Shown here: piece by piece, positions 193 through 30,776 of the stretch
Layout: the number at the start of each line of letters is the position of its first letter
Position numbering within the stretch: the stretch's first letter is position 1
Source of the DNA: Acaryochloris marina MBIC11017
GTDB taxonomy: Bacteria > Cyanobacteriota > Cyanobacteriia > Thermosynechococcales > Thermosynechococcaceae
Length of the DNA: 32,000 nt
Reading direction: 5' to 3'
Assembly (NCBI RefSeq): GCF_000018105.1
Contig: NC_009925.1
Location: 3,210,001 to 3,242,000 of the forward strand
Program-made: the position numbers and the translations under genes
The notes under the pieces: generated by a model
What the model saw: the letters and a program-made list of their open reading frames with translations, nothing else
What the model was told of the DNA's origin: nothing
The model's database searches: none

Positions 193-945
193 ATGATCTC
201 TGCTCTACCGATTGTGGATAAAACTGTTCAACCCTCTGATTTAATTCCTTTACTTGGACAGTATCAGCTTCTGCCTCAGTTGCTGAAAGAACTGATTATT
301 GACCAAGTGATTCAGGATGTGCAATTAAGCTCAGAAGAAGTTGTTCAGGCTGTAGAGCAGTTCTATCGCCAGTATCAAATTGGTGAGGAAGCTAGGCGTG
401 AGGCCTGGCTAACGCATTACCGGATGACGCCTCAGCAACTGGCGGCCCAAGCTCAACGGCAGATGAAGTTGTATAAATTCAAACTCCAGACTTGGAATAA
501 CCAGGTAGAGTCTGATTTTCTGCAGCAGAAAGGGCAGTTCGATCAATACGTTTATTCCTTGATCCGAGTCGCAAGTGCTGAAGTGGCTCAAGAGTTGTAC
601 TTTCGGCTACAAGCGGGTGAACAAGCATTTGCAGATTTGGCAACCAAATATTCTCAAGGGCCTGAAGCACAAACAGGTGGTTTGATTGGTCCTGTCACGG
701 CTGCTAATCTGCACCCCACATTAGTGCAAATTCTGACCAGCGCTCAACCGGGGCAAGTACGCCCACCCATTCGTTTAGGTGAATGGTTTGTGATTGTCAG
801 CTTGCAAAAATTGATCTCGGCTCAACTAGATGCCCCACTTCGACAACAATTGCTAGAGCAGCGCTTTAATGAGTGGCTGCAATTGCAACTGCAATCTGTT
901 GTTGTATCTGATGATTCTATTGCTGTTTCTGCGCAAACACCATGA
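193..945 (+). CDS. Parvulin (PpiC)-type peptidyl-prolyl cis-trans isomerase with a SurA-N-like helical N-terminal part. No signal peptide is visible.
   Basis: 250-aa ORF. The C-terminal half (FADLATKYSQGPEAQTGGLIGPV...GEWFVIVSLQKL) looks like a rotamase/parvulin domain. Its stop overlaps the next start (ATGA at 942-945). Confidence 0.8.
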   Translation: MISALPIVDKTVQPSDLIPLLGQYQLLPQLLKELIIDQVIQDVQLSSEEVVQAVEQFYRQYQIGEEARREAWLTHYRMTPQQLAAQAQRQMKLYKFKLQTWNNQVESDFLQQKGQFDQYVYSLIRVASAEVAQELYFRLQAGEQAFADLATKYSQGPEAQTGGLIGPVTAANLHPTLVQILTSAQPGQVRPPIRLGEWFVIVSLQKLISAQLDAPLRQQLLEQRFNEWLQLQLQSVVVSDDSIAVSAQTP

Positions 946-3899
946 CTTCAGCTATCCTTGCCCTAGAATCTTTTCTCAAAGATCTGCCCGGTTTTGACCA
1001 GCTGTCAGAAGCGGTTTTATCTTCGGTGGCGAAAGAGTTTCAACCGTTGCGCTATCCCATGGGCCGTCCGCTGGTCTCTAACCGGGCTATGCCCCAAGAC
1101 TTTACCCTCATCTATCAAGGGCAGGTGCGGCTATTAGGCTATGATCCCCGAACCGATGCTCCAGTGACCCTCAGTCTATTGGGACCAGGTGCTGCAGTGG
1201 GATGGATTAGTCTCGTGCGCCAAATTCCTTGTGAGACAGCCATTGCTTCGGTAGAAACAGTGGGCTTGAAGTTGCCCGCTGCGACCTTTTTAGAGCTGCT
1301 AGACCATGAACCGAGCATTGCCCAAGTCTATGAGCAGCAGCCCAGTGTCTTAGAAGCGTTTGAGGTCCTTGGTCAACAGTTATTGATACGGGCGGATGGT
1401 TCGACGGACCTCAAACGATTGGCAGAACGAGCGTTACCCGACAGTTTGATTCAAAACCGCCCCATACGAGATATCTCCATTGCCCAATTACAACCGAATT
1501 TGGAATGGTTTGTGAGTGGCGGGTCTATTCCTGACTTAGAAGTTGGGCAACCCTTGGAAACTTGTCTAGAGCAGCTCAATGGCACGGTCTCACGTTCAGA
1601 AACGCTCCGGTTGATTGGCTTATCGCCCATCAAGGCCCAGCAGCCAAAGATTGAGCCAGTGGCATCTGCTCCGCAAACCGATGCGTGGGAGGAGATTCCA
1701 GAAGCACCGACGTTGCTGCCTACGGTGGATGAAGCCCCGGTCAAGCATGGCAAATATCCCTTTAAATCAGGTCGGGGTCCTGTTGATGCTCCGCTGGCCT
1801 GTTTTCAAATGCTGGCGCTGCATCTCAACTTGCCATTTCGCAAAGATGTGATTCGACGGATTCTCAAAAACCAAACGGAGCGGAATGGTCCGGGAATTTC
1901 CCTACCGGTCTATGGTGCGATCGCAGAATCGATGGGCTTGCGTGCTCAACTCGTGGAAACTCCTGCCTCAGCTTTTCCTCGCCTTCCCGTTCCTGCTTTG
2001 ATCAACTGGCAGGATCGCATTGCGCTGGTGTATGAAACTGGCTCAAAAGAAATTGTGTTTGCGGTGCCAGAGCAAACCATGCTCCGCAAGCATCCAGATG
2101 ATTTTCTAGAAGCTTTTGATGACAAGGTGCAGGTGCTGCTGTTAGAGCGCACCCATGATACGCCTCAAAGTCGTTTTAATCTGAGTTGGTTTTGGCCGTC
2201 GATTAAGAAGCACCGTAAGGTTTTGATTGAGGTGTTGATTGCCTCGTTCTTTGTGCAATTGTTTGGCTTAGCGAATCCGCTGATTACGCAAGTCATTATC
2301 GATAAAGTCCTATCCCAAGGGGCTCTTGGAACCCTGAACGTGCTGGGTTTGTTACTGGTTGGTGTGGCTATTTTTGAAGCCTTGCTGACGAGTTTTCGAA
2401 CCTATCTGTTTGTGGATACCACCAATCGGATTGATATGTCTTTGGGGGCAGAGGTCATCGATCACTTGGTGCGTTTACCCCTACGCTATTTTGATAAGCG
2501 GCCTGTGGGAGAGCTAGCCACCCGAGTCAATGAATTGGAGAATATCCGTAAATTCTTGACGGGGACTGCCTTGACGGTGGTATTGGATGCGGTGTTCTCT
2601 GTGGTGTACATCGTTGTCATGGTGTTTTACAGCTGGCTGCTGACGATTATTGCCCTAGGCACAGTGCCGCTGTTTGCCTTGCTAACGTTTATCTTTGCAC
2701 CGATTATTCGCCGCTTGGCTCGGACCAAGGCTGAAGAAAATGCCAAAACCCAGTCTTACCTGGTGGAAGTTGTTTCGGGTATTCAAACGGTTAAGGCCCA
2801 GAATATTGAGCTGAAATCTCGCTGGCAGTGGCAAGATCGCTATGCTCGCTATGTCAGCTCCGGATTTAAGGCGGTGGTGGCGTCTACCACGGCGGGTTCC
2901 ATGAGCGGCTTTTTGAATAAATTATCCAGCTTGCTCCTGCTGTGGGTTGGAGCCTATCTATTTATTCAAGGGCAACTGACCGTGGGCGAATTGATTGCTT
3001 TTCGTATCATTGCGGGTTATACCACTGGTCCTTTGCTCCGCTTAGTGCAGCTATGGCAGAACTTCCAAGAAACGGCGCTTTCTCTAGAGCGCTTGAGTGA
3101 CATTCTCGATTACCCCCAAGAGGTGACTGAAGCGGACCGAGATTTAATTCCCATGCCGCTGATGGAGGGGGCGGTTAAATTTGATGAGTTATCTTTCCGA
3201 TTTAAGGACCATGGACCGATGCAGTTGCAGCAGGTGTCTTTGGAAGTCCCTGCTAAGACCTTTGTGGGTATTGTCGGTCAGAGTGGTTCAGGTAAGAGTA
3301 CCTTAATGAAGCTCTTGATGCGGCTTTATAACGCGAATGGAGGACGGATTTTAGTCGACCAGTATGACATTAGTAAGGTCGAGTTATATTCTCTCCGGCG
3401 TCAAATTGGCATGGTGCTACAAGACAGTTTGCTGTTTGATGGCACGGTCCAAGAGAATATTGCTTTATCCTCTCCCGATGCAACGGCGGAAGAAATTGTG
3501 GAAGCCGCCAAAGTGGCCTATGCCCATGATTTCATTATGGAGCTGCCCCAAGGCTATAACTCCCGAGTCGGTGAGCGGGGGTCATCTTTGTCTGGTGGCC
3601 AACGGCAACGGATTGCGATCGCACGTATGGTATTGCAAAATCCCCAGCTCATTATTCTGGATGAAGCCACGAGTGCACTAGATTACAACGCTGAGCGCCA
3701 AGTTTGCCTTAACTTAGCAGAAGCCTTTGGCGATCGCACCGTCTTTTTCGTCACTCACCGTCTCAAAACGTTGGAATCTGCGGATATGATTCTGATGATG
3801 GATCAGGGCAATCTAGTAGAACAAGGTACCCATGCTGAATTGATGCAGCAAAAAGGTCGATATTACTGGCTATACCAGCAACAGGAGATTCAATCATGA
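942..3899 (+). CDS. Type I secretion ABC exporter (HlyB-like). Domain order is cNMP-binding-like, C39-like (apparently non-catalytic), 6-TM ABC membrane domain, then ATPase.
   Basis: 985-aa ORF. Walker A is GQSGSGKST, the ABC signature is LSGGQRQRIAIAR and Walker B is LIILDEATSALD. A CNB-fold segment lies around aa 30-125. A C39-like segment (aa ~270-380) aligns by eye to ComA/HlyB N-domains. ATGA overlaps occur at both ends. Confidence 0.92.
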   Translation: MTSAILALESFLKDLPGFDQLSEAVLSSVAKEFQPLRYPMGRPLVSNRAMPQDFTLIYQGQVRLLGYDPRTDAPVTLSLLGPGAAVGWISLVRQIPCETAIASVETVGLKLPAATFLELLDHEPSIAQVYEQQPSVLEAFEVLGQQLLIRADGSTDLKRLAERALPDSLIQNRPIRDISIAQLQPNLEWFVSGGSIPDLEVGQPLETCLEQLNGTVSRSETLRLIGLSPIKAQQPKIEPVASAPQTDAWEEIPEAPTLLPTVDEAPVKHGKYPFKSGRGPVDAPLACFQMLALHLNLPFRKDVIRRILKNQTERNGPGISLPVYGAIAESMGLRAQLVETPASAFPRLPVPALINWQDRIALVYETGSKEIVFAVPEQTMLRKHPDDFLEAFDDKVQVLLLERTHDTPQSRFNLSWFWPSIKKHRKVLIEVLIASFFVQLFGLANPLITQVIIDKVLSQGALGTLNVLGLLLVGVAIFEALLTSFRTYLFVDTTNRIDMSLGAEVIDHLVRLPLRYFDKRPVGELATRVNELENIRKFLTGTALTVVLDAVFSVVYIVVMVFYSWLLTIIALGTVPLFALLTFIFAPIIRRLARTKAEENAKTQSYLVEVVSGIQTVKAQNIELKSRWQWQDRYARYVSSGFKAVVASTTAGSMSGFLNKLSSLLLLWVGAYLFIQGQLTVGELIAFRIIAGYTTGPLLRLVQLWQNFQETALSLERLSDILDYPQEVTEADRDLIPMPLMEGAVKFDELSFRFKDHGPMQLQQVSLEVPAKTFVGIVGQSGSGKSTLMKLLMRLYNANGGRILVDQYDISKVELYSLRRQIGMVLQDSLLFDGTVQENIALSSPDATAEEIVEAAKVAYAHDFIMELPQGYNSRVGERGSSLSGGQRQRIAIARMVLQNPQLIILDEATSALDYNAERQVCLNLAEAFGDRTVFFVTHRLKTLESADMILMMDQGNLVEQGTHAELMQQKGRYYWLYQQQEIQS

Positions 3900-5491
3900 C
3901 CAGTACTCAAGATTTCGCTGGCGACCCCACCAAACTGAATGGGACGAATGGAAATAACGGCAATGGATCTGAGCCAACGGTCCTGTCCCTGACTAAATCA
4001 GAGCCCAAAAAAGAAAAACCCTTTGATCGGCCAGTTATTCTGCAGCAATCTCCGTTTTGGTCTAGAGCCATCATTTATGGAATTGTAGGGGCGGCTGCAG
4101 CAGCATTGGCATGGGCCTGCTTGTTTGAAATTGAAGAAGCTATTCCTGCCACGGGACAGCTCGAACCCAAGGGGGCCGTTAAGGCTGTACAATCCCCTGT
4201 GACTGGTGTGGTTAAAGAGATTAAGGTCGAAGAAGGAGACCTGGTGAAGAAAGGGGACGTTTTAATTGTTCTCAATCGTAAAGCAACGCGATCAGAGATC
4301 AATTCCCTAAAACGCCAGCGTCGTAACCTAGTGCAAGTCAACGAGTATTATCGCCAACAGCTGAAAGGACAAACCGATACCCCCTTGCCGGATTTAATTG
4401 ATCCCGAGTTGATTAATTCCACCCGCGATCGCCAATCTTTAGTGGCGGAAAATAAATTATTTAGAGCCCAGCTGAATGGTGCTAATAATGCTCAAGCCTT
4501 TTCCGCAGAAGAGCGGCAGCGTTTAAATTCAGGTCTGCTGCAAGGAAAAACAAGCGTGGCGGCTGCCCAAGCCCGAGTCATGCAAGGGGATAAACAGCTT
4601 CGCCAAATTGAGGTCCAGCTAGAACAGACCAAAATTCAGCTGGCGAGTGCCCAACAGACTTTAGCCCTCAACAAAGAAATTGTCGCAGATATTGAAGATG
4701 CCCATAAGAAAGGGGCTATTGCTCGGGTTCAATTCAAGCGCCAAGAAGATGAAGTGCAGTCTGGTGAAGCCGAGGTCTCTCGCTTACAACAGGAACAGAT
4801 TCGCCTCTTGCGGCAAATGGAGCAGATTGGACAAGAAAAACTACAGTCTCAAGCCCAAGCGCTTAATACGGTAGCGACGAATCAGCGAGATTTACTAGAC
4901 CGAATCGCCGCTAATCAACAGCGTATTACTGAAATTGACAGTCAGCTGACCAAGGCCATTGTCGATAATCAGAGAACCATCGCTGATCTTGAAAATCGGC
5001 TACAGCAAGCAGAATTAACCCTGGATTACCAAGAGCTGAAAGCACCAGTCGCTGGGGTTGTGTTTGATTTGCAGCCCAGTTCACCGGGCTTTGTGGCAAA
5101 TGCGAGTGAACCCATTTTAAAAATTGTCCCTGAGGATAATTTGAAAGCCAAAGTTTACATTACCAATAAAGATATTGGCTTTATCCAGACTGGTATGCCT
5201 GTAGATGTCAGAGTAGATTCCTATAACTTTAGTGAATTTGGTGACATTAAAGGCACCATTGAATCCATTGGCTCAGATGCCTTGCCTCCTACAGAAGTGC
5301 GACAGTTTTATAGTTTTCCCGCCGTTGTTAAATTAGATACTCAAACTTTGAAGACCAGGGGCCGCCGTGAATTAGACTTGCAATCTGGAATGTCGGTCAG
5401 TGTCAATATCAAAGTCCGCGATCGACCGATTATTAGCTTGATTACTGATCGCTTTTCCAGAGAAGAGGATGGCATTAAGCATTTGCGCTAA
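3896..5491 (+). CDS. HlyD-family membrane fusion protein (periplasmic adaptor) of a T1SS.
   Basis: 531-aa ORF with an N-terminal TM helix (AIIYGIVGAAAAALAWACLF), a lipoyl-like motif (GVVKEIKVEEGDLVKKGDVLI), a long Q/E-rich coiled coil and a C-terminal beta-barrel part (LKAPVAGVVFDL...). It is translationally coupled to the ABC gene. Confidence 0.9.
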   Translation: MTSTQDFAGDPTKLNGTNGNNGNGSEPTVLSLTKSEPKKEKPFDRPVILQQSPFWSRAIIYGIVGAAAAALAWACLFEIEEAIPATGQLEPKGAVKAVQSPVTGVVKEIKVEEGDLVKKGDVLIVLNRKATRSEINSLKRQRRNLVQVNEYYRQQLKGQTDTPLPDLIDPELINSTRDRQSLVAENKLFRAQLNGANNAQAFSAEERQRLNSGLLQGKTSVAAAQARVMQGDKQLRQIEVQLEQTKIQLASAQQTLALNKEIVADIEDAHKKGAIARVQFKRQEDEVQSGEAEVSRLQQEQIRLLRQMEQIGQEKLQSQAQALNTVATNQRDLLDRIAANQQRITEIDSQLTKAIVDNQRTIADLENRLQQAELTLDYQELKAPVAGVVFDLQPSSPGFVANASEPILKIVPEDNLKAKVYITNKDIGFIQTGMPVDVRVDSYNFSEFGDIKGTIESIGSDALPPTEVRQFYSFPAVVKLDTQTLKTRGRRELDLQSGMSVSVNIKVRDRPIISLITDRFSREEDGIKHLR

Positions 5492-5620: not shown

Positions 5621-5848
5621 TTAAGCTGCTATCCTCGCCAATTTATTGCTGGATAACTCTTCTAGGGTTTCGAGCTCTAGAGACTCGTTCATGCTATCTA
5701 CATCTAGATCGAGCAGTATAAAACTGTTGATTTCTGCGTCAGATAAAAAGAGAGACTGTTCAGAATGGAAAACAGTGGTGTTTAACGTGTTAAGAAGAGT
5801 CATAGTCTGAATATTTTGGAGAAGTGCCATCTGAGAGGTCATGGTCAT
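5621..5848 (-). CDS. Hypothetical small acidic protein (75 aa), convergent with the T1SS operon.
   Basis: The ORF has 11 Asp/Glu against 2 Lys/Arg and no Gly, Pro, Cys, Trp or Tyr. A dedicated minus-strand terminator lies downstream and a palindrome lies upstream. I recognise no homology. Confidence 0.4.
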   Translation of the reverse strand: MTMTSQMALLQNIQTMTLLNTLNTTVFHSEQSLFLSDAEINSFILLDLDVDSMNESLELETLEELSSNKLARIAA

Positions 5849-5996: not shown

Positions 5997-6954
5997 TATA
6001 GCAGTCGCCATTCTATTCAGGACACTAGATGTAGAACATGTTCCATTGCTTCTCTGAGAGATCCAAAATGTTCTAATTGGTGACGGATGCGACTTTTAAT
6101 CCAAGACCAAGACCGCTCAATCTTGTTCAAGTCAGGGGAATAAGGCGGTAAATACCAAACCTCACATCCTGCTTTTTCCACTAATTCCTGTATTTGTCCT
6201 CCCTTGTGAAAAGTGGCATTATCTATCACCAGCTTCTGCCCAGGCTTGAGCACGGGTATCAAGCAACGCTCTAGCCAAAGTTCAAACACAGTCCGATTGC
6301 AAGCTCCTTCGATCGTGAACGGTGCCATCAACTGCTTTGCTCTCAACGCCGCAATCATATTGACTCGGCCGCTTCTACGCCCAGTCTTCAAAGCATAAAC
6401 CCGCTCACCTTTGGGGCCATAAGCATAGTCATACTCGTCTCGATGATCCATGCCCGACTCATCCGCATAGACGATATCGTCTGGGTCCACGGTACTCAGA
6501 CGTTTGATGAACGCTGCCCGTTTGTGCTTATCTCGTTCTCGGTACCCATATGTTTTTTTTTCGAGTAAATCCGATTTTCTGGAGGGCTCTTGAGATGGTT
6601 CGATCACTAATCTCTCCATCCCATAGTTGAGCCATCTGAGCTTGGGTTTTATGACGATGCTTGTGGGCAAACGCTCGAAACTTGTCCCAGTCAGTGATTT
6701 TATGGCTATGGCCAGGATGATGGACTGGCTTGGGATGCAAATCACCCGTTTCCGCCTTGAGGTGTTGCCATTGGTTAATGGTGTTACGACTGATATCGAA
6801 CAGCTCACTAGCCTCAGAAGGGCGCATCCCATCTAGCTCAATCGCATCTATCACTTTGCAACGTAGGTCGTAACTATAAATTTTGGGCATCACACAGGAG
6901 AAGGAATAAAATACTTCTCTAGTTTAAGTCCTTCTCAATATGGCGACTGCTATA
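5997..6954 (-). mobile_element. IS630/Tc1-mariner family insertion sequence (ISY100-like, about 0.95 kb) with terminal inverted repeats and flanking TA.
   Basis: TATAGCAGTCGCCAT at 5997-6011 is the exact reverse complement of 6940-6954. The imperfect inverted repeat extends to about 27 nt, ending in AGGAC on both sides. A TA dinucleotide lies at each outer edge, consistent with TA target duplication. The element encloses a DDE transposase. Confidence 0.85.
6017..6893 (-). CDS. IS630-family transposase (HTH N-domain plus DD34E catalytic domain), split into two frames at an A9 tract.
   Basis: orfA (6528-6893) ends ...QKIGFTRKKNIW. orfB (6017-6832) continues ...KKTYGYRERD with DESG, DNATFH and, 34 residues on, the E of NKIE. 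The frames join at the A9 run (T9 on plus, 6553-6561). Removing one A gives one continuous ORF of about 291 aa. Confidence 0.85.
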
Positions 6955-7065: not shown

Positions 7066-10000
7066 CTAGATATAGCTGAAAGAACTATCTGTCAGGCTAA
7101 ATCCAGAGTCACCCATAACATTGGCAATTAACTCATCAGCGCCGCCAGCACTGCCATCACCATTAGAATCTAGATAGATTCCAGTTCCGCTCATGCCAGG
7201 GGCTGAAGCTCCTAAGACGTAATCAGATGCAGAACCACTGAGTTGAATCGTATCCTCGCTGCCATTGAAGTCAGTAATGACGGCAAAGTCAGTGAGACCT
7301 GCTGATGTTTCATCGCCATCGTTGTAGTAGGCGACGTCACCGCCAAGGACAAAATAATCTGCCCCTTCATCCCCAGTCATATAGTCGATAGAGCCACTGC
7401 CTTTAAGGGTGTCGCTGTTGGCACCGACTAATACATCGTCACCACTACCGCCTAGTAGAGTGTCATTGCCTTCTTGACCAATTAGGGTATCGTTGTTAGC
7501 GCCCCCGTCAAGGACATCATTACCTGCGCCAGCATAGAGGCCGTCGTTTCCGGCATCGCCAAAGAGCTGATCATCACCACTGCCACCATATAAGGAGTCT
7601 AGACCTGCACCACCCTGTAGATTATTAGATCCGTTGACTCCATAGAGAGCATCGTTACCGTCTCCACCCAGCAGTTGGTTATCCCCAGTGCTGCCAAACA
7701 ACTCGTCGTTGCCAGCGCCACCATCTAAAAGATCATTATCGCTATCGGCATACAGGGAATCGTCCCCTTCTCCCCCTAAGAGAGTGTCAACACCAGACCC
7801 ACCGTAGAGCTGGTCATTGCCACTGCCTCCTTCGAGGAAGTCATTTCCGCTACCGCCTTTGAGGATATCTGCTCCTGCACCAGCATTGAGGATATCGTCA
7901 TTGCTGCCGCCGTCCAGGGTGTCTTTACCATCGCCACTGGAGAGGGTATCGTTCCCAGATCCACCCTTGAGGGTGTTATTGCCACCCGTAGTGGTCAAAA
8001 CGTCATCCCCGGCACCGCCATCTAAGCGGTCGCTGCCGCTGCCACTAGAAAGGGTGTCATTGCCTCCTTGGCCGTAGAGCTTCACTTTTGCCCCGTTGGT
8101 GGAGGTAATTTCGTCATTGCCGCTATTGGCATAGAGCGTTTCAATGCCGGCTGCATCGATATCCATATTTAGGTCAGAGGTGCTTTGATAGTAAGCCGTA
8201 TCTGTACCAGTGCCGCCTTCAACCACCGTATCGTCAGCGTCGAAGTAGAGTTTATCGTTACCAGCGCCCCCGATTAATTGATCTGCACCTGCATCTCCTT
8301 TCAGGGTATCGTTGCCAGACCCACCATCTAAGAGGTCATCGCCACTACCGCCAAGCAGACTATCGTTGCCGTTACCAGAGCTTAGAGTATCGTTACCAGA
8401 CCCACCATCTAAGGTATCTTTGCCTCCGGCAGTCGTCAGGCTATCGTTACCGTCGCCACCGAATAGAGCATTGTTGCCACCGCTAGAGGATAAGACATCG
8501 TCGCCGCTGCCACCATCTAAGCGATCGCTACCGCTGCCACTGGTAAGGGTGTCATCGCCAGCTAGGCCATACATCTTAATGTTGGTGCCATTGCTGGAGG
8601 TGAACTGGTCGTTCCCAGCGTTACCGTGAATTTCTTCGATGCTGACATCATCAATATTGAGGGTTAGACCGTCGCTACTTTGGAGTTTGGCAACGTCTGT
8701 ACCGTCGCCACCATCGAAGGTGTCATCACCATCGAAGTTCAGGGTGTCGTTACCTGCACCGCCCATGAGGGTATCGGCCCCGGCATTGCCCGAGAGCACA
8801 TCATTGCCTTCTTGGCCTTCTAATAGGTCATCACCCGCGCCGCCGGAGAGGATATCATTGCCTGCTCCTGCGAGAATGGTGTCATTGCCATCACCGCCAT
8901 CGAGGTTCTCATGGCCGGTGCCGCCCGTGATACTGTCATCGCCAGCTTCACCATGAATTTCGACATTCTCGGTACCGGAATTGGTAAAGACATCATCGCC
9001 GCCAGAACCGTAGGCTAGCTCAATTTGGCTGGTGCCCAGGTCTAAGGTGACCGGTTGGTTGCCTTGGGCGCGAGCGATGTCATAACCGTCGCCGCCATCG
9101 ACTACGGTATCGTCCGCGTCGAATAGCAATGTGTCAGAGCCTTCGCCTCCATACAGTGCGTCTGCACCATCGCCACCGACCAACATGTCGTTCTCGGTAC
9201 CGCCTTCGAGGGTGTCATCCCCAGCACCCCCATCCATGTAATCATGGCCCGCTTCCCCAGAAATTAGGTCGTTGCCTTCACCTGCGATCGCAGTATCTTC
9301 ACCGGCTCCACCGGCTAGGGTATCGTCGCCCGTGCCGCCTTCAAGATAGTCATTGGCTGAGCCACCGGATAACTGGTCATTACCGCCGTTACCGAATAAC
9401 GCCACTGTGGTCGAAGCGGGAGTTCCAGCACCATTGGTATGGGTGAAAACATCATCACCACTGTTGCCGTGGGCTTCATCAAAGCTGTTGGCCCCTGCAT
9501 CAAAGACGACGCCTTCTGCAGACTCAACAATGGCAACGTCATAGCCTTCACCACCGAGGATTTGAGTGTCGGCAGCGTCAATAAAGACAACATCATTTCC
9601 GTCTCCACCTAGGAGGGTATCAGCCCCTTCACCTCCACTTAAGAAGTCATTGCCGCTGCCGCCATCAACGATGTCATTCCCGGCGTTCCCGGACAGCCAC
9701 TCGTCATTGCCGGTATTACCAGAAATAACGTCAGCTCCTGCACCACCTTCAATGACATCCTGGCCTTCGCCACCACTGAGTTGGTCGGCCCCTTCACCAC
9801 CACTTAAGTAGTCGTTTCCGGCATCACCAGAGAGGACGTCATCCCCGGCATCGCCCATGAGAACGTCTTTTTCTTCGCCACCGAAGAGGGTATCATTGCC
9901 AGCACCACCTTCTAAAATATCTGAGCCAGCTTCACCCTTCAGTAAGTCAGCATCATCACCGCCGCCTAAGGTGTCGTTACCAGCCCCACCGTATAGGGTG

Positions 10001-12594
10001 TCTAGTCCAGCATCGCCTTGGAGAACATCGTTTCCTGCATCACCAGTTAGTAAATCCTGGTCAGCGCCACCCAGAACGGTATCATCGTCTTCACCACCGG
10101 AAACAATGTCGTTCCCCCGGCCACCAGAAACGATGTCGTTGCCTGTACCGCCGGAAATAACATCGTTGCCCGTACCACCGTCGACCCAGTAGTCATCACC
10201 TGTTCCGGCGTTGAGAATGTCGTTGCCAGCCCCGCCAGTCAGAACGTCGTTGCCTTCATCCCCTGCCAAGGTGTCGTTACCCGTACCACCGCTGATGATG
10301 TCACTTTCTAAGCCACCGCTTAGCTCGTCATGGCCTGTGCCCCCATCTAGGGTGTCCTTGCCTGCGCCGCCGAAGAGCGTGTCGTCGCCGAGACCTCCTT
10401 CTAAGATGTCGTCGCCTTGGTCGCCAGAGAGATAGTCATTACCGCTGTTCCCCAAGATGGTGTCGTTGCCTTCACCCCCCATGAGGACATCATTCACAGA
10501 TGAAGCCGTGCTCGCGTGCACCGAGACGCTATCTAGATATCCACCCAAGCTATCGTCGGTGCCCACGGCTCTAAACTCAAGGGCAGTCGTATCACCATTG
10601 CCACCTTGGAGCTTATAGGTATAGGTTTGCCATTGTTCGCTTTGGCTTTCACCGTGAATGGTATCGATGAGTTCGCCATCCCAGTAAACTTCAATTGGTG
10701 TACTGTTGAGATCTACACCGGGTCTGGGAGTGTAAGCAAAAGACAGCTCGTAGGTTTGTCCTGCTACCGTGTCTAATTGCTGCATCATGCCACTGTTGTT
10801 GTGGCTATCGAGTTCTACTCGGGCTTGGCCGTCATCAGCGACCCCTATCTGCTGAACTTCGATGCCGGACCCTTGGGTACTTGTCCAACCGGATATGGAT
10901 TGGAAAACATCCCAACTCTTATTGCCCAGAGGATTGTCTTCGAAACTGCCATTGACGACGAGATTGATTTGACCCAGGCTATCTTCTTGACCGCCATCGA
11001 TAAAGTCGTTCCCAGTGCCCCCGTAGATGGTGTCGTCTCCGGAACCCCCATCCATAATGTCGTTGCCAGCATTGCCTGACATTAAATCGTTGCCGGAGTT
11101 ACCCAGAACGATGTCTTGGCCTTCACCACCGCTAACGGTATCTTCACCAGCACCGCCAGCAACCACATCATTGCCGAGGCCGCCTTCTACGAGGTCATTA
11201 CCATCGCCACCGTCGACCCAGTAGTCGTCGCCTTCACCTCCATCCAGGACATCATTGCCCGCGTCGCCCATCATGACATCGTTACCGGTGTTACCCAGCA
11301 GGGTGTCTGTCCCTCTACCGCCAGACAGCACATCTTCTCCAGCGCCGCCATCGATTAAATCAGCGCCTTCACCACCCGAGAGCCAGCCATCATTTCCAGC
11401 GCCACCGTCGATGGTGTCATTGCCCTGGCCGCCTTCAATGGCATCCATGCCTTCATCACCGGAGAGCAGATCATTCCCGACCCCACCATCGATAAAGTCA
11501 TGACCCGCACCACCGCTGATGGTGTCTTGCCCAGCATCGCCGTAGAGAACGTCCTGGTCGCCTTCGCCGGAAATGAGATCATTGCCTTCGCCGCCATGGA
11601 TATTGTCGTCTCCATGTCCCCCGTAGAGGGTATCTGTACCGGTGCCCCCATCCATATGATCGATATGTTCACCACCAAAGAGAGCATCGTCGCCCGCTCC
11701 CCCCATCATGGTGTCATCATCTGCGCCGCCGTAGAGGATATCGTTGCCTTCGCCACCATCCATGATGTCGTGGCCTTGCTCACCGTAGAGGGTATCGCTG
11801 CCTTCGCCGCCAGACATCCAATAGTCGTCACCGGCACCCCCGATTAGCTCATCGTTACCAGCTTCTCCCATGAGAATGTCATTGCCAGACTGGCCCAGGA
11901 TTTTGTCATCCCCTAGACCGCCTTTAAGGGTGTCAGCGCCTTCACCCCCATCCACTAGGTCATCCCCAGTACCGCCATCCACATAATCCGCGCCAGAGCC
12001 GGCTAATAGGCTATCTTGGCCTTCATTTCCGAGTAGATTGTCGTTGCCAACACCGCCGGTGACAAAGTCATTGCCTTCGCCGCCGCTGAGAATATCATCG
12101 CCTGCGTCCCCATGTAGGGTGTCGTCACCTGCTTCACCGGCTAGCCAGTAATCATCGCCTTGGCCGCCAATAATCATATCTGCGCCTTGGTCACCCATGA
12201 TGGCGTCTTTACCTAAGCCACCAATGAGGACATCATTACCAATGCCGCCTAAGAGAAGGTCATCATTCTGGGTACCGCTGCTAATAGCGTTGGGATCGGC
12301 GAAACCTGCACCGCTTTCATCGATGGGACCGGTATAGGTGTAGTTACCGCTTGCATCTTGTTGCCAGTTTTGGGTACCCCCTTCATCACCATGCATCCAG
12401 TCATTGCCTTGGCCGCCAGAGAGCGTATCGTTGCCTGTGCCACCTTTGACGACATCATCGCCTTCATTACCCGATAGCCAAACATCATCGCCTTCGCCGC
12501 CGATAATGGTATCGTCGCCTTCCTTGCCGACAACGACATCATCTGCCTCGGAGCCGAATAGAGCTTCGCTGCTGTCAGTACCAAATACTTGCAT
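7066..12594 (-). CDS. Giant RTX-type calcium-binding protein (1842 aa) and likely T1SS substrate. It has dozens of GGxGxDxxx nonapeptide repeats, an embedded DUF642/CBM-like beta-sandwich domain and a C-terminal secretion-type domain.
   Basis: The hemolysin-type nonapeptide repeat is pervasive. A non-repeat segment around aa 543-695 (NGSFEDNPLG...GWTSTQGSGIEVQ...YELSFAYTPRPG...) lies at nt ~10510-10970. The C-terminal ~110 aa (GADYFVLGG..YYNDGDETSAGLTDFAVITDFNGSEDTIQLSGSASDYVLG...) resembles T1SS C-terminal target domains. There is no N-terminal signal peptide. Confidence 0.92.
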   Translation of the reverse strand: MQVFGTDSSEALFGSEADDVVVGKEGDDTIIGGEGDDVWLSGNEGDDVVKGGTGNDTLSGGQGNDWMHGDEGGTQNWQQDASGNYTYTGPIDESGAGFADPNAISSGTQNDDLLLGGIGNDVLIGGLGKDAIMGDQGADMIIGGQGDDYWLAGEAGDDTLHGDAGDDILSGGEGNDFVTGGVGNDNLLGNEGQDSLLAGSGADYVDGGTGDDLVDGGEGADTLKGGLGDDKILGQSGNDILMGEAGNDELIGGAGDDYWMSGGEGSDTLYGEQGHDIMDGGEGNDILYGGADDDTMMGGAGDDALFGGEHIDHMDGGTGTDTLYGGHGDDNIHGGEGNDLISGEGDQDVLYGDAGQDTISGGAGHDFIDGGVGNDLLSGDEGMDAIEGGQGNDTIDGGAGNDGWLSGGEGADLIDGGAGEDVLSGGRGTDTLLGNTGNDVMMGDAGNDVLDGGEGDDYWVDGGDGNDLVEGGLGNDVVAGGAGEDTVSGGEGQDIVLGNSGNDLMSGNAGNDIMDGGSGDDTIYGGTGNDFIDGGQEDSLGQINLVVNGSFEDNPLGNKSWDVFQSISGWTSTQGSGIEVQQIGVADDGQARVELDSHNNSGMMQQLDTVAGQTYELSFAYTPRPGVDLNSTPIEVYWDGELIDTIHGESQSEQWQTYTYKLQGGNGDTTALEFRAVGTDDSLGGYLDSVSVHASTASSVNDVLMGGEGNDTILGNSGNDYLSGDQGDDILEGGLGDDTLFGGAGKDTLDGGTGHDELSGGLESDIISGGTGNDTLAGDEGNDVLTGGAGNDILNAGTGDDYWVDGGTGNDVISGGTGNDIVSGGRGNDIVSGGEDDDTVLGGADQDLLTGDAGNDVLQGDAGLDTLYGGAGNDTLGGGDDADLLKGEAGSDILEGGAGNDTLFGGEEKDVLMGDAGDDVLSGDAGNDYLSGGEGADQLSGGEGQDVIEGGAGADVISGNTGNDEWLSGNAGNDIVDGGSGNDFLSGGEGADTLLGGDGNDVVFIDAADTQILGGEGYDVAIVESAEGVVFDAGANSFDEAHGNSGDDVFTHTNGAGTPASTTVALFGNGGNDQLSGGSANDYLEGGTGDDTLAGGAGEDTAIAGEGNDLISGEAGHDYMDGGAGDDTLEGGTENDMLVGGDGADALYGGEGSDTLLFDADDTVVDGGDGYDIARAQGNQPVTLDLGTSQIELAYGSGGDDVFTNSGTENVEIHGEAGDDSITGGTGHENLDGGDGNDTILAGAGNDILSGGAGDDLLEGQEGNDVLSGNAGADTLMGGAGNDTLNFDGDDTFDGGDGTDVAKLQSSDGLTLNIDDVSIEEIHGNAGNDQFTSSNGTNIKMYGLAGDDTLTSGSGSDRLDGGSGDDVLSSSGGNNALFGGDGNDSLTTAGGKDTLDGGSGNDTLSSGNGNDSLLGGSGDDLLDGGSGNDTLKGDAGADQLIGGAGNDKLYFDADDTVVEGGTGTDTAYYQSTSDLNMDIDAAGIETLYANSGNDEITSTNGAKVKLYGQGGNDTLSSGSGSDRLDGGAGDDVLTTTGGNNTLKGGSGNDTLSSGDGKDTLDGGSNDDILNAGAGADILKGGSGNDFLEGGSGNDQLYGGSGVDTLLGGEGDDSLYADSDNDLLDGGAGNDELFGSTGDNQLLGGDGNDALYGVNGSNNLQGGAGLDSLYGGSGDDQLFGDAGNDGLYAGAGNDVLDGGANNDTLIGQEGNDTLLGGSGDDVLVGANSDTLKGSGSIDYMTGDEGADYFVLGGDVAYYNDGDETSAGLTDFAVITDFNGSEDTIQLSGSASDYVLGASAPGMSGTGIYLDSNGDGSAGGADELIANVMGDSGFSLTDSSFSYI

Positions 12595-12765: not shown

Positions 12766-13722
12766 TTAAGGAACAGGCTGTGGATAGCTAACGGTTGAGG
12801 TATCCACAACGATGGGTTCATCCACAATCACATCGTCAAGATTGGCATCAATTAAATTGCTGCCAAATAAGTTGACCCCTCGTAAATCTGCTCCCTGTAA
12901 ATTGGCTCCCATAAGGATGGCTTCGCTGAGGTTGGCACCTCGCAGGTCGGCTTCACATAAGCAAGCGCCACCCAAATTACTGCCAATTAAACTGGCGTCT
13001 GTTAAGGTGGTTTCACTTAAATCTGTACCAATCAGAACCGCATGGGATAAATCGGCCTGTTTGAGGTAAGCACCAATCATATCGGCTCCACTCAGATAGG
13101 CTTCGCGAAACGTGCATTGTTCTAGGGCAGTTTCGTTTAAACTCGCCAACATCAGTTCAGCCCGATTGAAATTGCTATGGCTGAGGAGAGTGCCGCTCAA
13201 TTTAGCTCCAATCAGCTTCATACCTGCGAAATGGCGTTCACCTGCTGCATATTTTGCCAATATGCTTCGGCTAATATCTTCATCTCCTTCCAGATCTGCA
13301 TGACTATGCTCTTCAATTGTTTGTAGCAATTTGAGAAGAGATTGAGATTGGGGGCCGACCGTACTCAGCTGCTGTAATTGTTCAAAACGACGTCCTAGTT
13401 GTTGTCGAGAATGGTTGAGTTCTGCGAGCTGTTGGTCTAATTCTTCGACATGGTGGGCTACCATTTGCTGCATGCGCTGTTGTGCATCTTTGGAATGTTC
13501 ACCAAGGTCTAGCAGTTCTTTAATTTCGTGTAGGGAGAGGCCAAAATTTTGGGCACTGCGAATGATTTGTAATCGGTTTTGAGCGGCTGTGGTGTAGAGA
13601 CGATAGCCGGATCGATTCCGTTCGGGTTGTTTCAGGAGTCCAAGTTGCTCATAATAGCGAATTGCTTGAGGCGAGACACCAAATTTACTGGCTAATTGGC
13701 CAATGAGCAGTCCAGTCGTCAT
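12766..13722 (-). CDS. MerR-family HTH transcriptional regulator fused to a C-terminal pentapeptide-repeat domain.
   Basis: The N-terminus LLIGQLASKFGVSPQAIRYYEQLGLLKQPERNRSGYRLY...LQIIRSAQNFGLSLHEIKELL is a classic MerR HTH followed by a coiled coil. About 125 C-terminal residues carry A(D/N)LxX pentapeptide repeats (ADLSHAVLIGTDLSETTLTDASLIGSNLGG...ADLRGANLSEAILMGANLQGADLRGVNL). I chose the ATG at 13722. The track start at 13791 is a TTG. Confidence 0.85.
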   Translation of the reverse strand: MTTGLLIGQLASKFGVSPQAIRYYEQLGLLKQPERNRSGYRLYTTAAQNRLQIIRSAQNFGLSLHEIKELLDLGEHSKDAQQRMQQMVAHHVEELDQQLAELNHSRQQLGRRFEQLQQLSTVGPQSQSLLKLLQTIEEHSHADLEGDEDISRSILAKYAAGERHFAGMKLIGAKLSGTLLSHSNFNRAELMLASLNETALEQCTFREAYLSGADMIGAYLKQADLSHAVLIGTDLSETTLTDASLIGSNLGGACLCEADLRGANLSEAILMGANLQGADLRGVNLFGSNLIDANLDDVIVDEPIVVDTSTVSYPQPVP

Positions 13723-13783
13723 TTCATTATCAGGGATTAGAAATCCAAGTTTTTTATCGGTTATTCTTAGGATGCCCAAATAA

Positions 13784-13834
13784 AAAGGCAATTTAGCGGA
13801 GTAAAGACGACAAGCTCCAGCAAAAATTGCCTTT
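13784..13834 (-). terminator. Long hairpin with 11-bp perfect arms (AAAGGCAATTT / AAATTGCCTTT) and a 29-nt loop, between the 105-aa gene and the MerR-PRP gene. Possible terminator or operator.
   Basis: The arms lie at 13784-13794 and 13824-13834. On the minus strand the second arm is followed by TTATTTGGG. Confidence 0.3.
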
Positions 13835-13879
13835 GACTGATATAAGGTTTAAGAGGAATAGTTCGGATTTGACTGTTAG

Positions 13880-14197
13880 TTAAGCCACGGCAGCCACTAA
13901 ATGATTTGTGGTTTTTGGGCCAACTTTTTCTTTGAGAACATCTTGGATTTGGCGCAAATAATCTTCGGCAACTTCTTGAGGAAAATTGAGGTGAATGGTG
14001 AGATTAGGATTGCTGCTATAGATGTGTAATGAACCATAGGTGGGTAACCAGCCTGAGAAGCCAGCGACCTGTGTATAGGCGATAAATTGGAAAGCCCGAG
14101 TGCTGGGGTTAGAGTACTCAATCCCGCTTTCTGTAAGGGTAATAATGACATCGCTGTTTGCATCTTTGGGATGAAAACCTTTGAATTCCATTCTCAT
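13880..14197 (-). CDS. Hypothetical protein (105 aa), soluble, no recognised domain.
   Basis: Clean ORF with coding-like composition, flanked by AT-rich non-coding DNA. It is on the same strand as its neighbours. Confidence 0.5.
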   Translation of the reverse strand: MRMEFKGFHPKDANSDVIITLTESGIEYSNPSTRAFQFIAYTQVAGFSGWLPTYGSLHIYSSNPNLTIHLNFPQEVAEDYLRQIQDVLKEKVGPKTTNHLVAAVA

Positions 14198-14596
14198 GAC
14201 AGACTCCTAGACATGGGTCAATTTAATGTGCTCAATCTGGTGTTTGCGGAGTATTCTTTTATAGAATATTTTTGCTAAAAAAGAGTAAGTTTTCTATTTG
14301 TCGTGAGTACGAAAGCAGAAAAAGAATGACTCTTTAGTCAGATTGGATATTTCAATATTGCCCAAAAAGTAGTTCTATCTAACTTGATAATGTTGTGGTG
14401 TTTAAGTAAAAAATTTTAGACTGTATTTAATTTTTGTCGGAGATATATGAAGACTCAAACAATTTATTTTTTGTGTATACAAAATAGACAGAAAGATATA
14501 CATCCTAAACGGTGTTTTTGGATGCTCAGCAGATGGGACAGAGTCTTACTGGAGGTCCGTCTGCAGGCTGCTATTGTAGGTCTAGCACGAGCAAGT

Positions 14597-16267: not shown

Positions 16268-16616
16268 TCCTGTCGTGGATAACGCATCTTGATCACAACT
16301 TTAGAGATAGTTTAACGGTTGCCAATCGCTAAATTAGGGAAAGTTAAACACTATATTAATGTCTAAATTCAAGAACTCCCAATAATTAGGTGAGTTTTAG
16401 GTCGGCTTTGGCTCCAGATGTCGCCTGACTTATTTACACAATAAGAAAGCTCAATCACAATAAAAGGGAGGTTACCGTTTCGGCAACGACTGATGTTCTG
16501 AGTCAGTCGGGGACTCGCAAGTTTTGGCAGCGATGGGGGCAGACTGACACATATACAGATGGCGCTTGAGGTCAGACTCAAGTTATGACTGAGAGGCAGG
16601 TTGAGACTGAGCTGTT

Positions 16617-28536: not shown

Positions 28537-28546
28537 CACCTTTCGA

Positions 28547-28577
28547 GAACTGCGATGCTGGGGTGATATCGCAGTTC
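28547..28577 (+). other. Stem-loop between the CPA2 antiporter and mrpC (10-bp perfect stem GAACTGCGAT / ATCGCAGTTC, 11-nt loop).
   Basis: Read directly. The T8 tract begins 26 nt downstream of the stem (28604-28611), so it is not a canonical terminator. It may be an attenuator or an RNA processing/stability element. Confidence 0.35.
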
Positions 28578-28630
28578 CCTCACCCACTTCTCTCACCCCC
28601 TTTTTTTAATTAACCCTTTTTAAAATCACC

Positions 28631-28966
28631 ATGTTAGAAGCGTTTATTTTTGCGACGATTCTCTGTGGCTTTTTCGGCATCATCCTTAAGCAAAATCTGA
28701 TGATGAAGATTATTGCAATGGATGTGATGAGTACTGGCGTTATTGCCTATTACGTCAAGATCTCAGCCCGACAAGGATTTTTCACCCCCATTCTCACGAA
28801 TAGTCATCAGGGGGCCTATGCGGATCCGGTCCCGCAAGCCGTGATTTTGACGGCAATTGTGATTGGGTTTTCAATTCAAGCGTTGATGCTGGTGGGCGTC
28901 ATGAAGCTCTCCCGCGACAATCCCACCTTGGAAAGCCGTGAGATTGAAAAGACCTACACACCATGA
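28631..28966 (+). CDS. mrpC: Mrp/Mnh Na+/H+ antiporter subunit C (NuoK-like).
   Basis: 111 aa with 3 TM segments, NuoK/MnhC-like sequence and operon context. Confidence 0.85.
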   Translation: MLEAFIFATILCGFFGIILKQNLMMKIIAMDVMSTGVIAYYVKISARQGFFTPILTNSHQGAYADPVPQAVILTAIVIGFSIQALMLVGVMKLSRDNPTLESREIEKTYTP

Positions 28967-30393: not shown

Positions 30394-30776
30394 CTGGATA
30401 TCTGAATATTCTGCTGCGTTTAGCCATCTGGTTTTTGCTAACCGCCGATTTTGGTATTGCCAATACCATCATTGGCGTCTGTGTGGCTTTACTGTTGCCC
30501 CGTCGTGCCAATCCGGGGGCCTTAAAAGATTGGCTGCATGCGATCGGGGAAATTATTATTGCCATTCCCCAAGCCTTTATTGAAGCGATTGAAATTATGG
30601 TCCGTCCCCACCGTTATGAAGCGATGACGATGGAACATGTCAAACCGCAGCGCACTCCTGGACTGATTTTTCTCGATATTTTCGTGATTACCTTTACCCC
30701 GAAAACCATTGTATTGAAGTACCACGAGGAAGGGTTGTACGAAGTCCACCGGATTCAGCGGAGGAAGCAGTCATGA
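30390..30776 (+). CDS. mrpE: Mrp/Mnh antiporter subunit E.
   Basis: The start at 30390 gives an ATGA overlap with the mrpD stop. The 128-aa protein is MnhE-like (LRLAIWFLLTADF...). The upstream part of the track ORF overlaps mrpD out of frame. Confidence 0.8.
   Translation: MTGYLNILLRLAIWFLLTADFGIANTIIGVCVALLLPRRANPGALKDWLHAIGEIIIAIPQAFIEAIEIMVRPHRYEAMTMEHVKPQRTPGLIFLDIFVITFTPKTIVLKYHEEGLYEVHRIQRRKQS

Follow-up and report, generated by a model that had tools for sequence, protein, structure and literature searches.

A conserved parvulin-fold gene precedes a HlyB/HlyD-type secretion gene pair in Acaryochloris marina and may encode a cytoplasmic holdase or adaptor

The window, a 32-kb stretch of Acaryochloris marina MBIC11017 DNA, contains three forward-strand ORFs at 193-945, 942-3899 and 3896-5491, which encode proteins of 250, 985 and 531 amino acids, respectively. 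As the preliminary description of this DNA had stated, they are joined by ATGA overlaps; direct reading of the + strand placed the overlap between the stop codon of the first gene (PPIase-like) and the start codon of the second (ABC exporter) at 942-945, and the one that joins the end of the ABC gene to the start codon of HlyD at 3896-3899. The domain content given in that description, a PPIase followed by a CNB/C39-like ABC protein and HlyD, agreed with a Pfam run in which all three proteins were matched. The exact 4-nt ATGA overlap between the first two genes was also present in 20 of the 51 linked loci, spread over many genera and taxa that include Thermosynechococcus, Elainella, Oculatella, Leptolyngbya JSC-1 and Crinalium, and it is therefore no local accident. 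Among the linked loci compared, the ABC/HlyD overlap was confined to Acaryochloris (L003-L005). An Rfam scan of the whole window gave zero matches, a promoter and terminator scan did not rise above background, and GTA-N8-TAC (NtcA-type) sites occurred at chance frequency.

The second gene (942-3899, + strand) encodes a long-type ABC exporter of 985 residues of a type I secretion system (T1SS). The protein passed the HlyB model TIGR01846 (type_I_sec_HlyB) with 734.2 bits against a cut-off of 725.55, and it fell far under the cut-offs of the bacteriocin ABC models TIGR03796 (416 versus 853) and TIGR01193 (386 versus 524). Its transmembrane and nucleotide-binding domains span residues 428-698 and 762-911 (nt 2223-3674; PF00664, 9.6e-58, and PF00005, 2.4e-33). 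The C39-like domain (residues 282-395, nt 1785-2126) was matched by Peptidase_C39 with 22.7 bits (cut-off 22), and its best sequence match in the PDB was HlyB's N-terminal domain, with A283 and A361 corresponding to HlyB Y9 and H83, such that the position of the C39 Cys is an Ala in the window protein and a Tyr in HlyB. The catalytic Cys and His were missing from all 44 orthologues compared (the window protein and 43 others), in which position 283 is Gly, Ala, Ser, Val or Glu and position 361 is Ala, Val or Ser; the domain is predicted to be non-proteolytic. The invariant Cys287 was considered as a displaced catalytic residue and rejected because it sits four residues into a helix and has no His partner. 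C39 domains of the CvaB type carry a second, non-catalytic Cys at the corresponding place.

The cNMP-binding-like domain at the N-terminus of the exporter (residues 37-122, nt 1050-1307; PF00027, 30.2 versus 27.5 bits) appears to have a non-canonical phosphate-binding cassette. Where the canonical cassette (Gly-Glu ... Arg-Ser/Thr-Ala) has its phosphate-binding Arg, 40 of 44 orthologues have Cys97, inside a conserved PCETAIAS motif. The linker between this domain and the C39-like domain contains 13% Pro in the 44 orthologues, versus 4.9% overall. The same layout of cNMP-like, C39, transmembrane and nucleotide-binding domains is found in the long-type PCATs HetC of Nostoc and PteB of S. elongatus; these two, which process or export small double-glycine proteins, have retained the catalytic Cys, whereas the window ABC has lost it. 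The N-terminal domains of HetC were reported to be soluble, and its cNMP domain, which is essential for function, binds ppGpp/GTP rather than cAMP (PMC10986499). With its apparently non-canonical ligand pocket, the cNMP-fold domain of the window protein would probably serve as a regulatory input.

The third gene (3896-5491, + strand) encodes a HlyD-family periplasmic adaptor of 531 residues that was matched by Pfam HlyD_3, Biotin_lipoyl_2 and HlyD_D23; it passed HlyD_3 and HlyD_D23 and scored marginally under the cut-off of TIGR01843 (202.1 versus 208.65 bits). A domain scan detected no TolC-like outer-membrane factor in any ORF of at least 100 amino acids in the window, as had been noted before, and such a factor for the trio would have to come from elsewhere in the genome. 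The locus resembles E. coli HlyB/HlyD/TolC in having an ABC half-transporter whose C39-like domain is predicted to be non-catalytic, an adjacent HlyD adaptor, RTX proteins as its likely cargo, and a TolC that would be encoded elsewhere. It differs from E. coli in that the ABC protein carries ~270 additional N-terminal amino acids, made up of a cNMP-like domain and a proline-rich linker, in the translationally coupled parvulin-fold gene upstream, and in that no HlyC-type acyltransferase is present alongside the window trio. A cyanobacterial counterpart, likened here by description and not by orthology, is the HlyB/HlyD analogue pair Sll1180/Sll1181 of Synechocystis, which together with Slr1270 was reported to export the S-layer protein Sll1951 (Agarwal et al., 2018, as cited in PMC11594277 and PMC11053131).

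Two genes on the reverse strand encode RTX proteins, as described previously. The first (7066-12594, 1842 residues) contains 49 HemolysinCabind stretches and a DUF642 domain; it is very acidic, lacks Cys and has a Pro content of 0.49%. The second (20747-23029, 760 residues) contains 11 such stretches and a GH16 domain, with 1.84% Pro and again no Cys. The two proteins share a C-terminal module, and with their HemolysinCabind repeats this makes the earlier proposal that they are candidate cargoes plausible. A homologue of the larger protein is encoded convergently to HlyD in another locus (L002). RTX genes adjoin the trio at 10 of the 44 other loci, and at L067 they lie between the two genes; most trios have no RTX gene within 8 kb. 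We treat the two RTX proteins as putative cargo of the trio. A pattern scan of all window ORFs of at least 25 amino acids found no double-glycine leader precursor near the operon, and the sole match in the window falls inside an antiporter gene at 30253. Since the C39-like domain is devoid of the Cys and His, the HlyB model was passed and a double-glycine precursor is absent, the window ABC is, judged by its sequence, a HlyB-type T1SS exporter and not a peptide-processing system, in agreement with the T1SS assignment first given to it. By analogy with HlyB, the C39-like domain, unable to cleave, would dock unfolded RTX-type cargo.

The first gene (193-945, + strand) encodes a PrsA/SurA-like parvulin-fold protein of 250 residues. 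It passed the Rotamase model PF00639 with 45.3 bits against a cut-off of 21.7, and its AF2 model (pLDDT 85) consists of an N-terminal helical domain (residues 14-116, nt 232-540), a parvulin domain (residues 118-208, nt 544-816) and a C-terminal helix (residues 214-241, nt 832-915). Foldseek searches with this model returned PrsA first (6vj4, 4wo7 and 6vj6, E ~2e-9) and then SurA, at a sequence identity of only 12-20%, and the isolated parvulin domain gave target-normalised TM scores of 0.7-0.78 to SurA P2, the PpiD parvulin domain and Pin1. A profile comparison also matched the N-domain and C-terminal helix of SurA. The AF2 model, Foldseek and the profile agree on the build of PrsA (Bacillus) and SurA (E. 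coli), a helical N- and C-terminal module with an inserted parvulin domain. The best NCBIfam match was TIGR04500, annotated as a putative peptide maturation system protein. Like the members of TIGR04500 and NifM, which were its best matches in NCBIfam, the protein is a signal-less, parvulin-related protein, but it belongs to neither family, with scores far below both cut-offs (50.5 versus 180 bits for TIGR04500 and 38.6 versus 168.2 bits for NifM).

PrsA and SurA, being lipoproteins or periplasmic proteins, carry export signals, whereas the window protein lacks this extracytoplasmic mark. Its maximal Kyte-Doolittle mean over 19 residues is 1.08, with no hydrophobic N-terminus or segment, and none of the 23 homologues aligned has a signal peptide or a lipobox. 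We considered whether translation might begin further upstream, at an unannotated start, and so include a signal peptide, and rejected the idea: the ORF cannot be extended, since its start codon is the first to follow a stop, and the homologues share its start Met. The claim that the first product carries no export signal was thus upheld. The protein is acidic (pI about 5-5.8), and its C-terminal tail is variable, disordered and not conserved among homologues. Structurally characterised proteins of this architecture (PrsA, SurA, PEB4 and PpiD) all act outside the cytoplasm, an observation that counts against a cytoplasmic holdase.

Alignment of the canonical parvulin His/Cys/His positions (H59, C113 and H157 of Pin1, the middle one being Cys or Asp in parvulins) placed them at an invariant L123, an invariant G156 and the variable, hydrophobic F199. 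The reference sequences for this alignment were Par10, Pin1 and SurA P2, and PDB-derived SurA alignments agree with it. The protein has the fold and the Rotamase match of a PpiC-type isomerase and lacks the catalytic residues of one, and it is probably not an isomerase. The label of prolyl isomerase in the preliminary description did not hold up, given the missing residues and candidate cargoes with only 0.5-1.8% proline. Both histidines of Pin1 are reported to be dispensable for catalysis, and the SurA P1 domain and the PpiD parvulin domain are catalytically inactive. The surroundings of the lost active site (YSQGPEAQTGGLIGP, H174-P175 and W198) are almost invariant among the homologues and therefore leave room for non-canonical catalysis. 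Because the canonical His/Cys/His residues are missing, a binding protein is proposed here in preference to an isomerase.

Relatives of the first protein are encoded on 479 genome stretches. Orthologous ABC and HlyD genes were found downstream of its gene in 47 of 67 evaluable loci. The trio is thus a conserved unit, and the lack of synteny that the preliminary description had named as refuting its hypothesis was not observed. In the other 20 loci (30%), 16 of which are from Nostocales, the gene stands alone among unrelated genes such as those for RecJ, a hydrolase and an acyltransferase, and a wider or different client is therefore possible; the unlinked Nostocales orthologues keep all sequence motifs of the family. 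With RTX genes next to only about a quarter of the loci as well, the term dedicated, used earlier for the first protein, was too strong. A plasmid search retrieved only a paralogue truncated by IS630 (the 3' part of the ABC gene and HlyD) on pREC3 of A. marina MBIC10699, from which the PPIase gene is gone and which is uninformative.

A natural fusion bears on where the protein works. P0270, a protein of 972 amino acids encoded at full length on 7 independent contigs, is 37% identical to the window PPIase-like protein over residues 11-219 (E 1e-40) and 55% identical, over residues 259-969, to the part of the window ABC that begins with the C39-like domain; its gene is followed by an overlapping HlyD gene. 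The parvulin-like module stands in place of the cNMP-like domain, and no membrane segment separates it from the C39 domain, which has a Cys at the catalytic position, unlike that of the window ABC. The fusion supports a cytoplasmic, transporter-associated role for the module, and together with the missing signal it argues that the window protein is probably cytoplasmic. Alternatively, the protein could leave the cytoplasm, through the adjacent T1SS or by another route, and help secreted or outer-membrane proteins to fold in the manner of PrsA/SurA. Its structural relatives are without exception extracytoplasmic foldases, and the acidic pI and disordered tail loosely fit a T1SS substrate. This we consider very unlikely, given the lack of a signal peptide or lipobox in the 23 aligned homologues, the poor conservation of the tail and, in P0270, the tethering of the module to the cytoplasmic N-terminus of an ABC protein. 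Moreover, T1SSs release their cargo outside the cell and not into the periplasm.

The linkage might also be inherited gene order with no functional tie, the protein being a general cytoplasmic, NifM-like chaperone with other clients. The unlinked loci and their unrelated neighbours, the weak similarity to NifM, and the occurrence of the parvulin-like module in fusions to TPR or coiled-coil regions fit such an explanation. It nevertheless has a small probability in our estimate, because distant cyanobacterial lineages, at ~50% protein identity, still keep the linkage and the exact 4-nt overlap, and because the module was independently fused to the same ABC clade. Somewhat more credible, though still doubtful, is that the protein does isomerise prolines in a non-canonical way, or that it is an assembly factor with the transporter itself as its client, which might act, for instance, on the proline-rich cNMP-C39 linker or on HlyD rather than on cargo. 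The near-invariant cleft motifs, the proline content of the linker, the conserved translational coupling to the ABC gene, the place of the module beside the linker and C39 domain in P0270 and the scarcity of proline in the candidate cargo are all in its favour; however, an invariant Gly occupies the canonical Cys/Asp position, linkers rich in proline are common and require no isomerase, and the motifs are retained in Nostocales orthologues that are unlinked to the transporter.

The trio is not new as a gene arrangement, contrary to the initial view that it had not been described. Clusters with the same three genes and the same ABC domains (CAP_ED, C39, TMD and NBD) were published in 2011 as group I bacteriocin clusters (SurA (rotamase), long-type ABC and HlyD; 57 clusters; Wang, Fewer and Sivonen, 2011, PMC3140520), and the arrangement was reused in 2015 (PMC4558948). 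Group I is the commonest cyanobacterial bacteriocin cluster type; of the cluster-bearing cyanobacterial genomes studied, only one lacks it, and A. marina MBIC11017 has three such clusters (PMC3140520). Synechocystis has one group I cluster, and sll1180 is not listed in the supplements of Wang et al. (PMC3140520). The window trio fits the group I definition, with a SurA/rotamase gene, a CAP_ED-C39 long-type ABC gene, HlyD and no extra modification enzymes. The published reading, which came from genome mining, is that of a peptide modification and export system (PMC3140520), in which the ABC protein would remove double-glycine leaders, and modification or folding of the peptide would fall to the SurA rotamase. 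In addition to the exact match in gene order and domains, the TIGR04500 match of the first protein, the active Cys peptidases HetC and PteB among related long-type exporters and the Cys of P0270 speak for it. Against the published reading, the window has a C39 domain with neither Cys nor His (absent from the 43 other orthologues too), a rotamase that lacks the canonical residues, no precursor gene, and RTX genes. The HlyB model was passed and the bacteriocin models were not, the TIGR04500 score is far below its cut-off, and the published count is itself just 0.35 precursors per group I cluster (PMC3140520). A bacteriocin or RiPP cluster is accordingly judged quite unlikely at this locus. The SurA gene is also found beside long-type ABC genes in groups II and VI (PMC3140520); with the Cys in P0270, this suggests that the partner may serve a transporter type and not RTX cargo specifically.

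Taken together, we put at about even the chance that the trio provides the inner-membrane and periplasmic components of a cyanobacterial T1SS of the HlyB/HlyD type, with a conserved accessory gene in front that encodes a cytoplasmic pseudo-parvulin holdase or adaptor. The PPIase-like protein would remain in the cytoplasm and act mainly by binding rather than isomerisation, as a holdase or adaptor at the cytoplasmic N-terminal apparatus of the ABC protein, where it would hold RTX proteins, which are acidic, proline-poor and Cys-free, in an export-competent state or offer them to the C39-like domain. How large unfolded substrates stay export-competent and reach the ABC component is an open question for T1SSs. 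To our knowledge, SecB in HasA secretion is the only well-known chaperone case in type I secretion. This cytosolic anti-folding chaperone, which is required for secretion of HasA by Serratia HasDEF (PMC8277102), offers a functional analogy for the proposed role; it differs in being a general chaperone of unrelated fold that is not encoded with the T1SS, and the ABC protein it serves has no C39-like domain. A literature search for parvulins or PPIases linked to type I secretion in cyanobacteria returned nothing relevant beyond the genome-mining papers. More tentatively, and with a probability that we place below even, the pseudo-parvulin could be a dedicated cytoplasmic chaperone or adaptor subunit, the first of its kind in a T1SS. 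It would dock on the cNMP-like/C39-like apparatus and there hold unfolded RTX-type cargo or hand it over, such that most cyanobacteria would have a four-component, possibly nucleotide-gated T1SS.

Cyanobacteria export RTX-type S-layer, adhesin and motility proteins, and the accessory gene, so far filed as a bacteriocin modification enzyme, is almost universal among them. The dead peptidase domain, the missing isomerase residues and the natural fusion, which ties the module to the transporter's cytoplasmic face, make its role a hypothesis that can be tested in tractable strains. The same three features suggest that protein-secretion systems are among the cyanobacterial group I bacteriocin clusters counted by genome mining.

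The three plus-strand ORFs at 193-945, 942-3899 and 3896-5491 encode a PPIase-like protein of 250 aa (Pfam Rotamase), a long-type ABC exporter of 985 aa (cNMP_binding at aa 37-122, a weak match to Peptidase_C39 at aa 282-395, ABC_membrane and ABC_tran) and an HlyD protein of 531 aa (HlyD_3, Biotin_lipoyl_2 and HlyD_D23). All domain calls of the preliminary description were thus recovered with Pfam, and the 4-nt ATGA stop/start overlaps that it described were read from the sequence at 942-945 and 3896-3899 (+). It had also found no TolC-like factor, and none of the larger ORFs of the window carries an outer-membrane factor domain. The window's best protein match, 95% identical, is from Acaryochloris sp. 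'Moss Beach'. The gene arrangement proved to have been catalogued. In 2011, Wang, Fewer and Sivonen (PMC3140520) sorted 145 'bacteriocin' clusters of cyanobacteria into groups, and their group I, consisting of SurA (rotamase domain), a long-type ABC (CAP_ED, C39, TMD and NBD) and HlyD, is matched exactly by the trio in gene and domain content. Group I occurs in all but one cluster-bearing genome, with three in A. marina MBIC11017 and only 0.35 precursor genes per cluster (PMC3140520). The scheme was taken up again in 2015 (PMC4558948), and both papers assign the rotamase protein to secretion or modification without testing it. The trio is a further instance of this arrangement, and the association is 15 years old. 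What is new here is evidence that the catalogue label is wrong for this clade, with its apparently dead peptidase and its isomerase devoid of the canonical catalytic residues. A literature search returned no paper on a parvulin-type protein in type I secretion.

The window ABC passes the curated HlyB model TIGR01846 (734.2 against a cut-off of 725.55) and falls well short of the models for bacteriocin and NHLP exporters. Among solved structures, the sole sequence match of its N-terminal domain is the HlyB C39-like domain, with A283 aligned to HlyB Y9 (the lost catalytic Cys) and A361 to HlyB H83. Across 44 aligned orthologues, position 283 holds G, A, S, V or E and position 361 holds A, V or S, never Cys or His; at neighboring position 359 a His was found in only one of the 44. 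Four residues past the lost catalytic Cys, within the conserved motif A-C-F-Q-M-L, Cys287 (window 1800-1802) is invariant (44/44). The same site in CvaB-type domains is taken by a second Cys that is not catalytic, and Cys287 is probably structural. A pattern scan detected no double-glycine leader ORF near the operon, which together with the low precursor count of Wang et al. indicates a protein-secreting T1SS rather than a bacteriocin-processing system for this clade. With the HlyB model passed, the C39 Cys and His absent and no such leader ORF nearby, the published bacteriocin reading of the trio appears improbable.

The cNMP-like domain of the exporter passes Pfam. In 40 of the 44 orthologues it has Cys97, within a strongly conserved PCETAIAS motif, at the position where canonical cassettes have the Arg that binds the cyclic phosphate. 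In HetC, the homologous domain has ppGpp/GTP as its ligand and does not bind cAMP (PMC10986499).

The PPIase-like protein belongs to a family with approximately 50% identity across cyanobacteria and 1094 matches in one library; a 50%-clustered library yielded 2426 representatives with E<=1e-3, of which 188 reach E<=1e-30. Its best NCBIfam matches, TIGR04500 and NifM, are both far under their cut-offs. The AF2 model (pLDDT 85) comprises a helical N-domain (residues 14-116), a parvulin domain (118-208) and a long C-terminal helix (214-241). In structure it most resembles PrsA of Bacillus species (E ~2e-9), then SurA, with PEB4 and HP0175-type SurA-like chaperones lower, and a profile search also aligned the N-domain and C-terminal helix to SurA. 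The predicted architecture is that of a foldase-chaperone, and no characterized protein of this type is known to work inside the cytoplasm. As proposed earlier, the product nevertheless has no signal peptide. ORF 193 begins at the first start codon past an in-frame stop, and therefore no N-terminal signal can be gained by extension; the N-terminus is non-hydrophobic here and in 22 homologues, and the most hydrophobic 19-residue stretch averages 1.08 (Kyte-Doolittle). With the signal missing, and a natural fusion described below, we consider it very unlikely that the protein is an exported foldase like its structural relatives.

Its naming as a parvulin-type PPIase holds for the fold and the Rotamase match but not for the canonical catalytic residues. 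HMM alignments place an invariant L123 at the first parvulin His, an invariant G156 at the Cys/Asp, and residue 199 or 200, hydrophobic and variable, at the second His. Par10, Pin1 and SurA-P2 served as references in one of these alignments, and PDB alignments agree. The motifs around the lost active site (YSQGPEAQTGGLIGP, H174-P175 and W198) are almost invariant, which implies selection on the cleft. Its simplest reading is a binding site, although it may have a non-canonical activity.

Conservation of the trio was assessed with a profile from 23 homologues. Searching a species-representative collection gave 479 genome stretches, of which 80 loci were fetched and the 67 with at least 3.2 kb downstream were scored. 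An orthologous ABC (54-93% identity) followed by HlyD lies directly downstream on the same strand in 46 of the 67. The count becomes 47/67 with a Potamolinea locus (L067, 8001-16719), where two opposite-strand genes, for a 910-aa beta-helix/inverse-autotransporter-like protein and a 783-aa RTX and Calx-beta protein, separate the PPIase-like gene from an ABC with a C39-like domain. The trio is thus syntenic in related genomes. In the remaining 20 loci, 16 of them from Nostocales, no long-type ABC was present within 8 kb, so that linkage is strong, not universal, and the PPIase-like protein is 'dedicated' to the ABC/HlyD pair only to that extent. At one unlinked locus (L026) the neighbors are genes for RecJ, a hydrolase and an acyltransferase. 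In Altericista sp. CCNU0014 (L008, 8001-10885), where no long-type ABC was found within 8 kb, the PPIase-like gene is followed by an HlyD gene (51% identity). Of 51 linked loci, 20 show the exact 4-nt PPIase/ABC overlap, and these come from distant genera; the ABC/HlyD overlap occurs only in Acaryochloris. Mere inheritance of gene order would account for the linkage, but the conserved overlap and the fusion make this quite unlikely.

That fusion, P0270, is a 972-aa protein among the distant representatives (L082, 8001-10919) with Rotamase, C39, ABC_membrane and ABC_tran domains. Residues 11-219 of P0270 align with the window PPIase-like protein (E 1e-40, 37% identity), and residues 259-969 correspond to the window ABC from its C39-like domain through to the C-terminus (55% identity), so that the PPIase-like module replaces the cNMP-like domain. 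Seven independent contigs, drawn from three sources, carry P0270 at full length, and an HlyD gene overlaps it directly downstream. The stretch from the module to the C39 domain contains no membrane segment, and HetC, a related exporter, is reported to have soluble N-terminal domains (PMC10986499). These features argue that the module would work in the cytoplasm, close to the N-terminal apparatus of the transporter, and the fusion supports a probable transporter-bound role. The catalytic position of P0270 is occupied by Cys (GELDCALASL); the partnership therefore belongs to this transporter lineage, not strictly to its dead-peptidase members. Genes for a glycosyltransferase, a phosphodiesterase-TPR protein and a PEP-CTERM protein lie upstream. 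Elsewhere (the P0137, P0149, P0172, P0176, P0182, P0223 group) the module is fused to N-terminal TPR regions (765-897 aa) or carries a long C-terminal tail that is proline-rich, coiled-coil or membrane-anchored (about 500-830 aa), which points to a broader family of parvulin-like binding modules on scaffolds.

The linker between the cNMP and C39 domains (window 1584-1775, ABC aa 215-278) is proline-rich, with 14% Pro in the window ABC and a mean of 13% in the 44 orthologues, against 4.9% overall; it is 62-93 aa long and on average 28% identical. This composition speaks for a non-canonical isomerase or assembly factor whose client is the transporter's own linker, a possible reading that we regard as rather doubtful. 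With roughly even confidence, we instead read the trio as a T1SS cassette of the HlyB/HlyD type that includes a conserved accessory protein, PrsA/SurA-like, co-translated and cytoplasmic. This protein would bind, probably without isomerizing, and serve at the N-terminus of the ABC as a holdase or adaptor; the role of SecB in the secretion of HasA (PMC8277102) provides a functional precedent. The observation behind the preliminary description is confirmed and its interpretation partly supported. The question is real and easily testable, on a mechanism that we infer.

Both candidate cargoes were confirmed as RTX proteins: one of 1842 aa (7066-12594, -) with 49 RTX stretches and DUF642, and one of 760 aa (20747-23029, -) with 11 RTX stretches and GH16. 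Both are highly acidic, Cys-free and proline-poor (0.49% and 1.84%, respectively), a composition unlikely to require prolyl isomerization. Common to both is a C-terminal module of ~80 aa (..ITDF..D.IQL.GSA.DYVLG...ELI..V..., with a hydrophobic end; 7066-7310 and 20747-21000, -), of which the 760-aa protein contains a second, internal copy. Similar 'ITDF..D.I.L' C-termini occur on RTX ORFs beside the trio at other loci (L002, L027, L044, L057, L069, L073 and L075), also in other genera, and the module may serve this T1SS clade as its secretion-signal domain. Of 44 other linked loci, 10 have RTX genes no more than 8 kb from the trio. Synechocystis Sll1180/Sll1181/Slr1270 is reported, as cited in PMC11594277 and PMC11053131, to export the S-layer protein Sll1951.

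In another Acaryochloris (L002), a close homologue of the 1842-aa RTX gene is convergent to HlyD and the window's IS630 element is absent. In the window, this IS630-family transposase (6017-6893, -; overlapping HTH and DDE_3 frames at 6528-6893 and 6017-6832) separates HlyD from the large RTX gene. The spacer between HlyD and the element holds a 75-aa acidic ORF (5621-5848, -), with neither a family match nor a double-glycine leader, followed by a minus-strand hairpin and T-run at 5573-5548. The IS630-like ISAcma14 truncates a paralogous ABC on plasmid pREC3 of A. marina MBIC10699 (L081). Signaling genes occupy 12766-18146 between the RTX genes: MerR with pentapeptide repeats (12766-13791, -), an FHA-GAF-adenylate/guanylate cyclase (14597-16267, -) and a Ser/Thr kinase with DUF4189 (16617-18146, +). 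A cyclase near a cNMP-domain exporter is suggestive, but the exporter domain is without the canonical phosphate-binding Arg. Unrelated to the trio, 27133-31844 (+) encodes a Na+/H+ exchanger and then Mrp/Mnh-type antiporter subunits (Oxidored_q2, Proton_antipo_M and MbhD).
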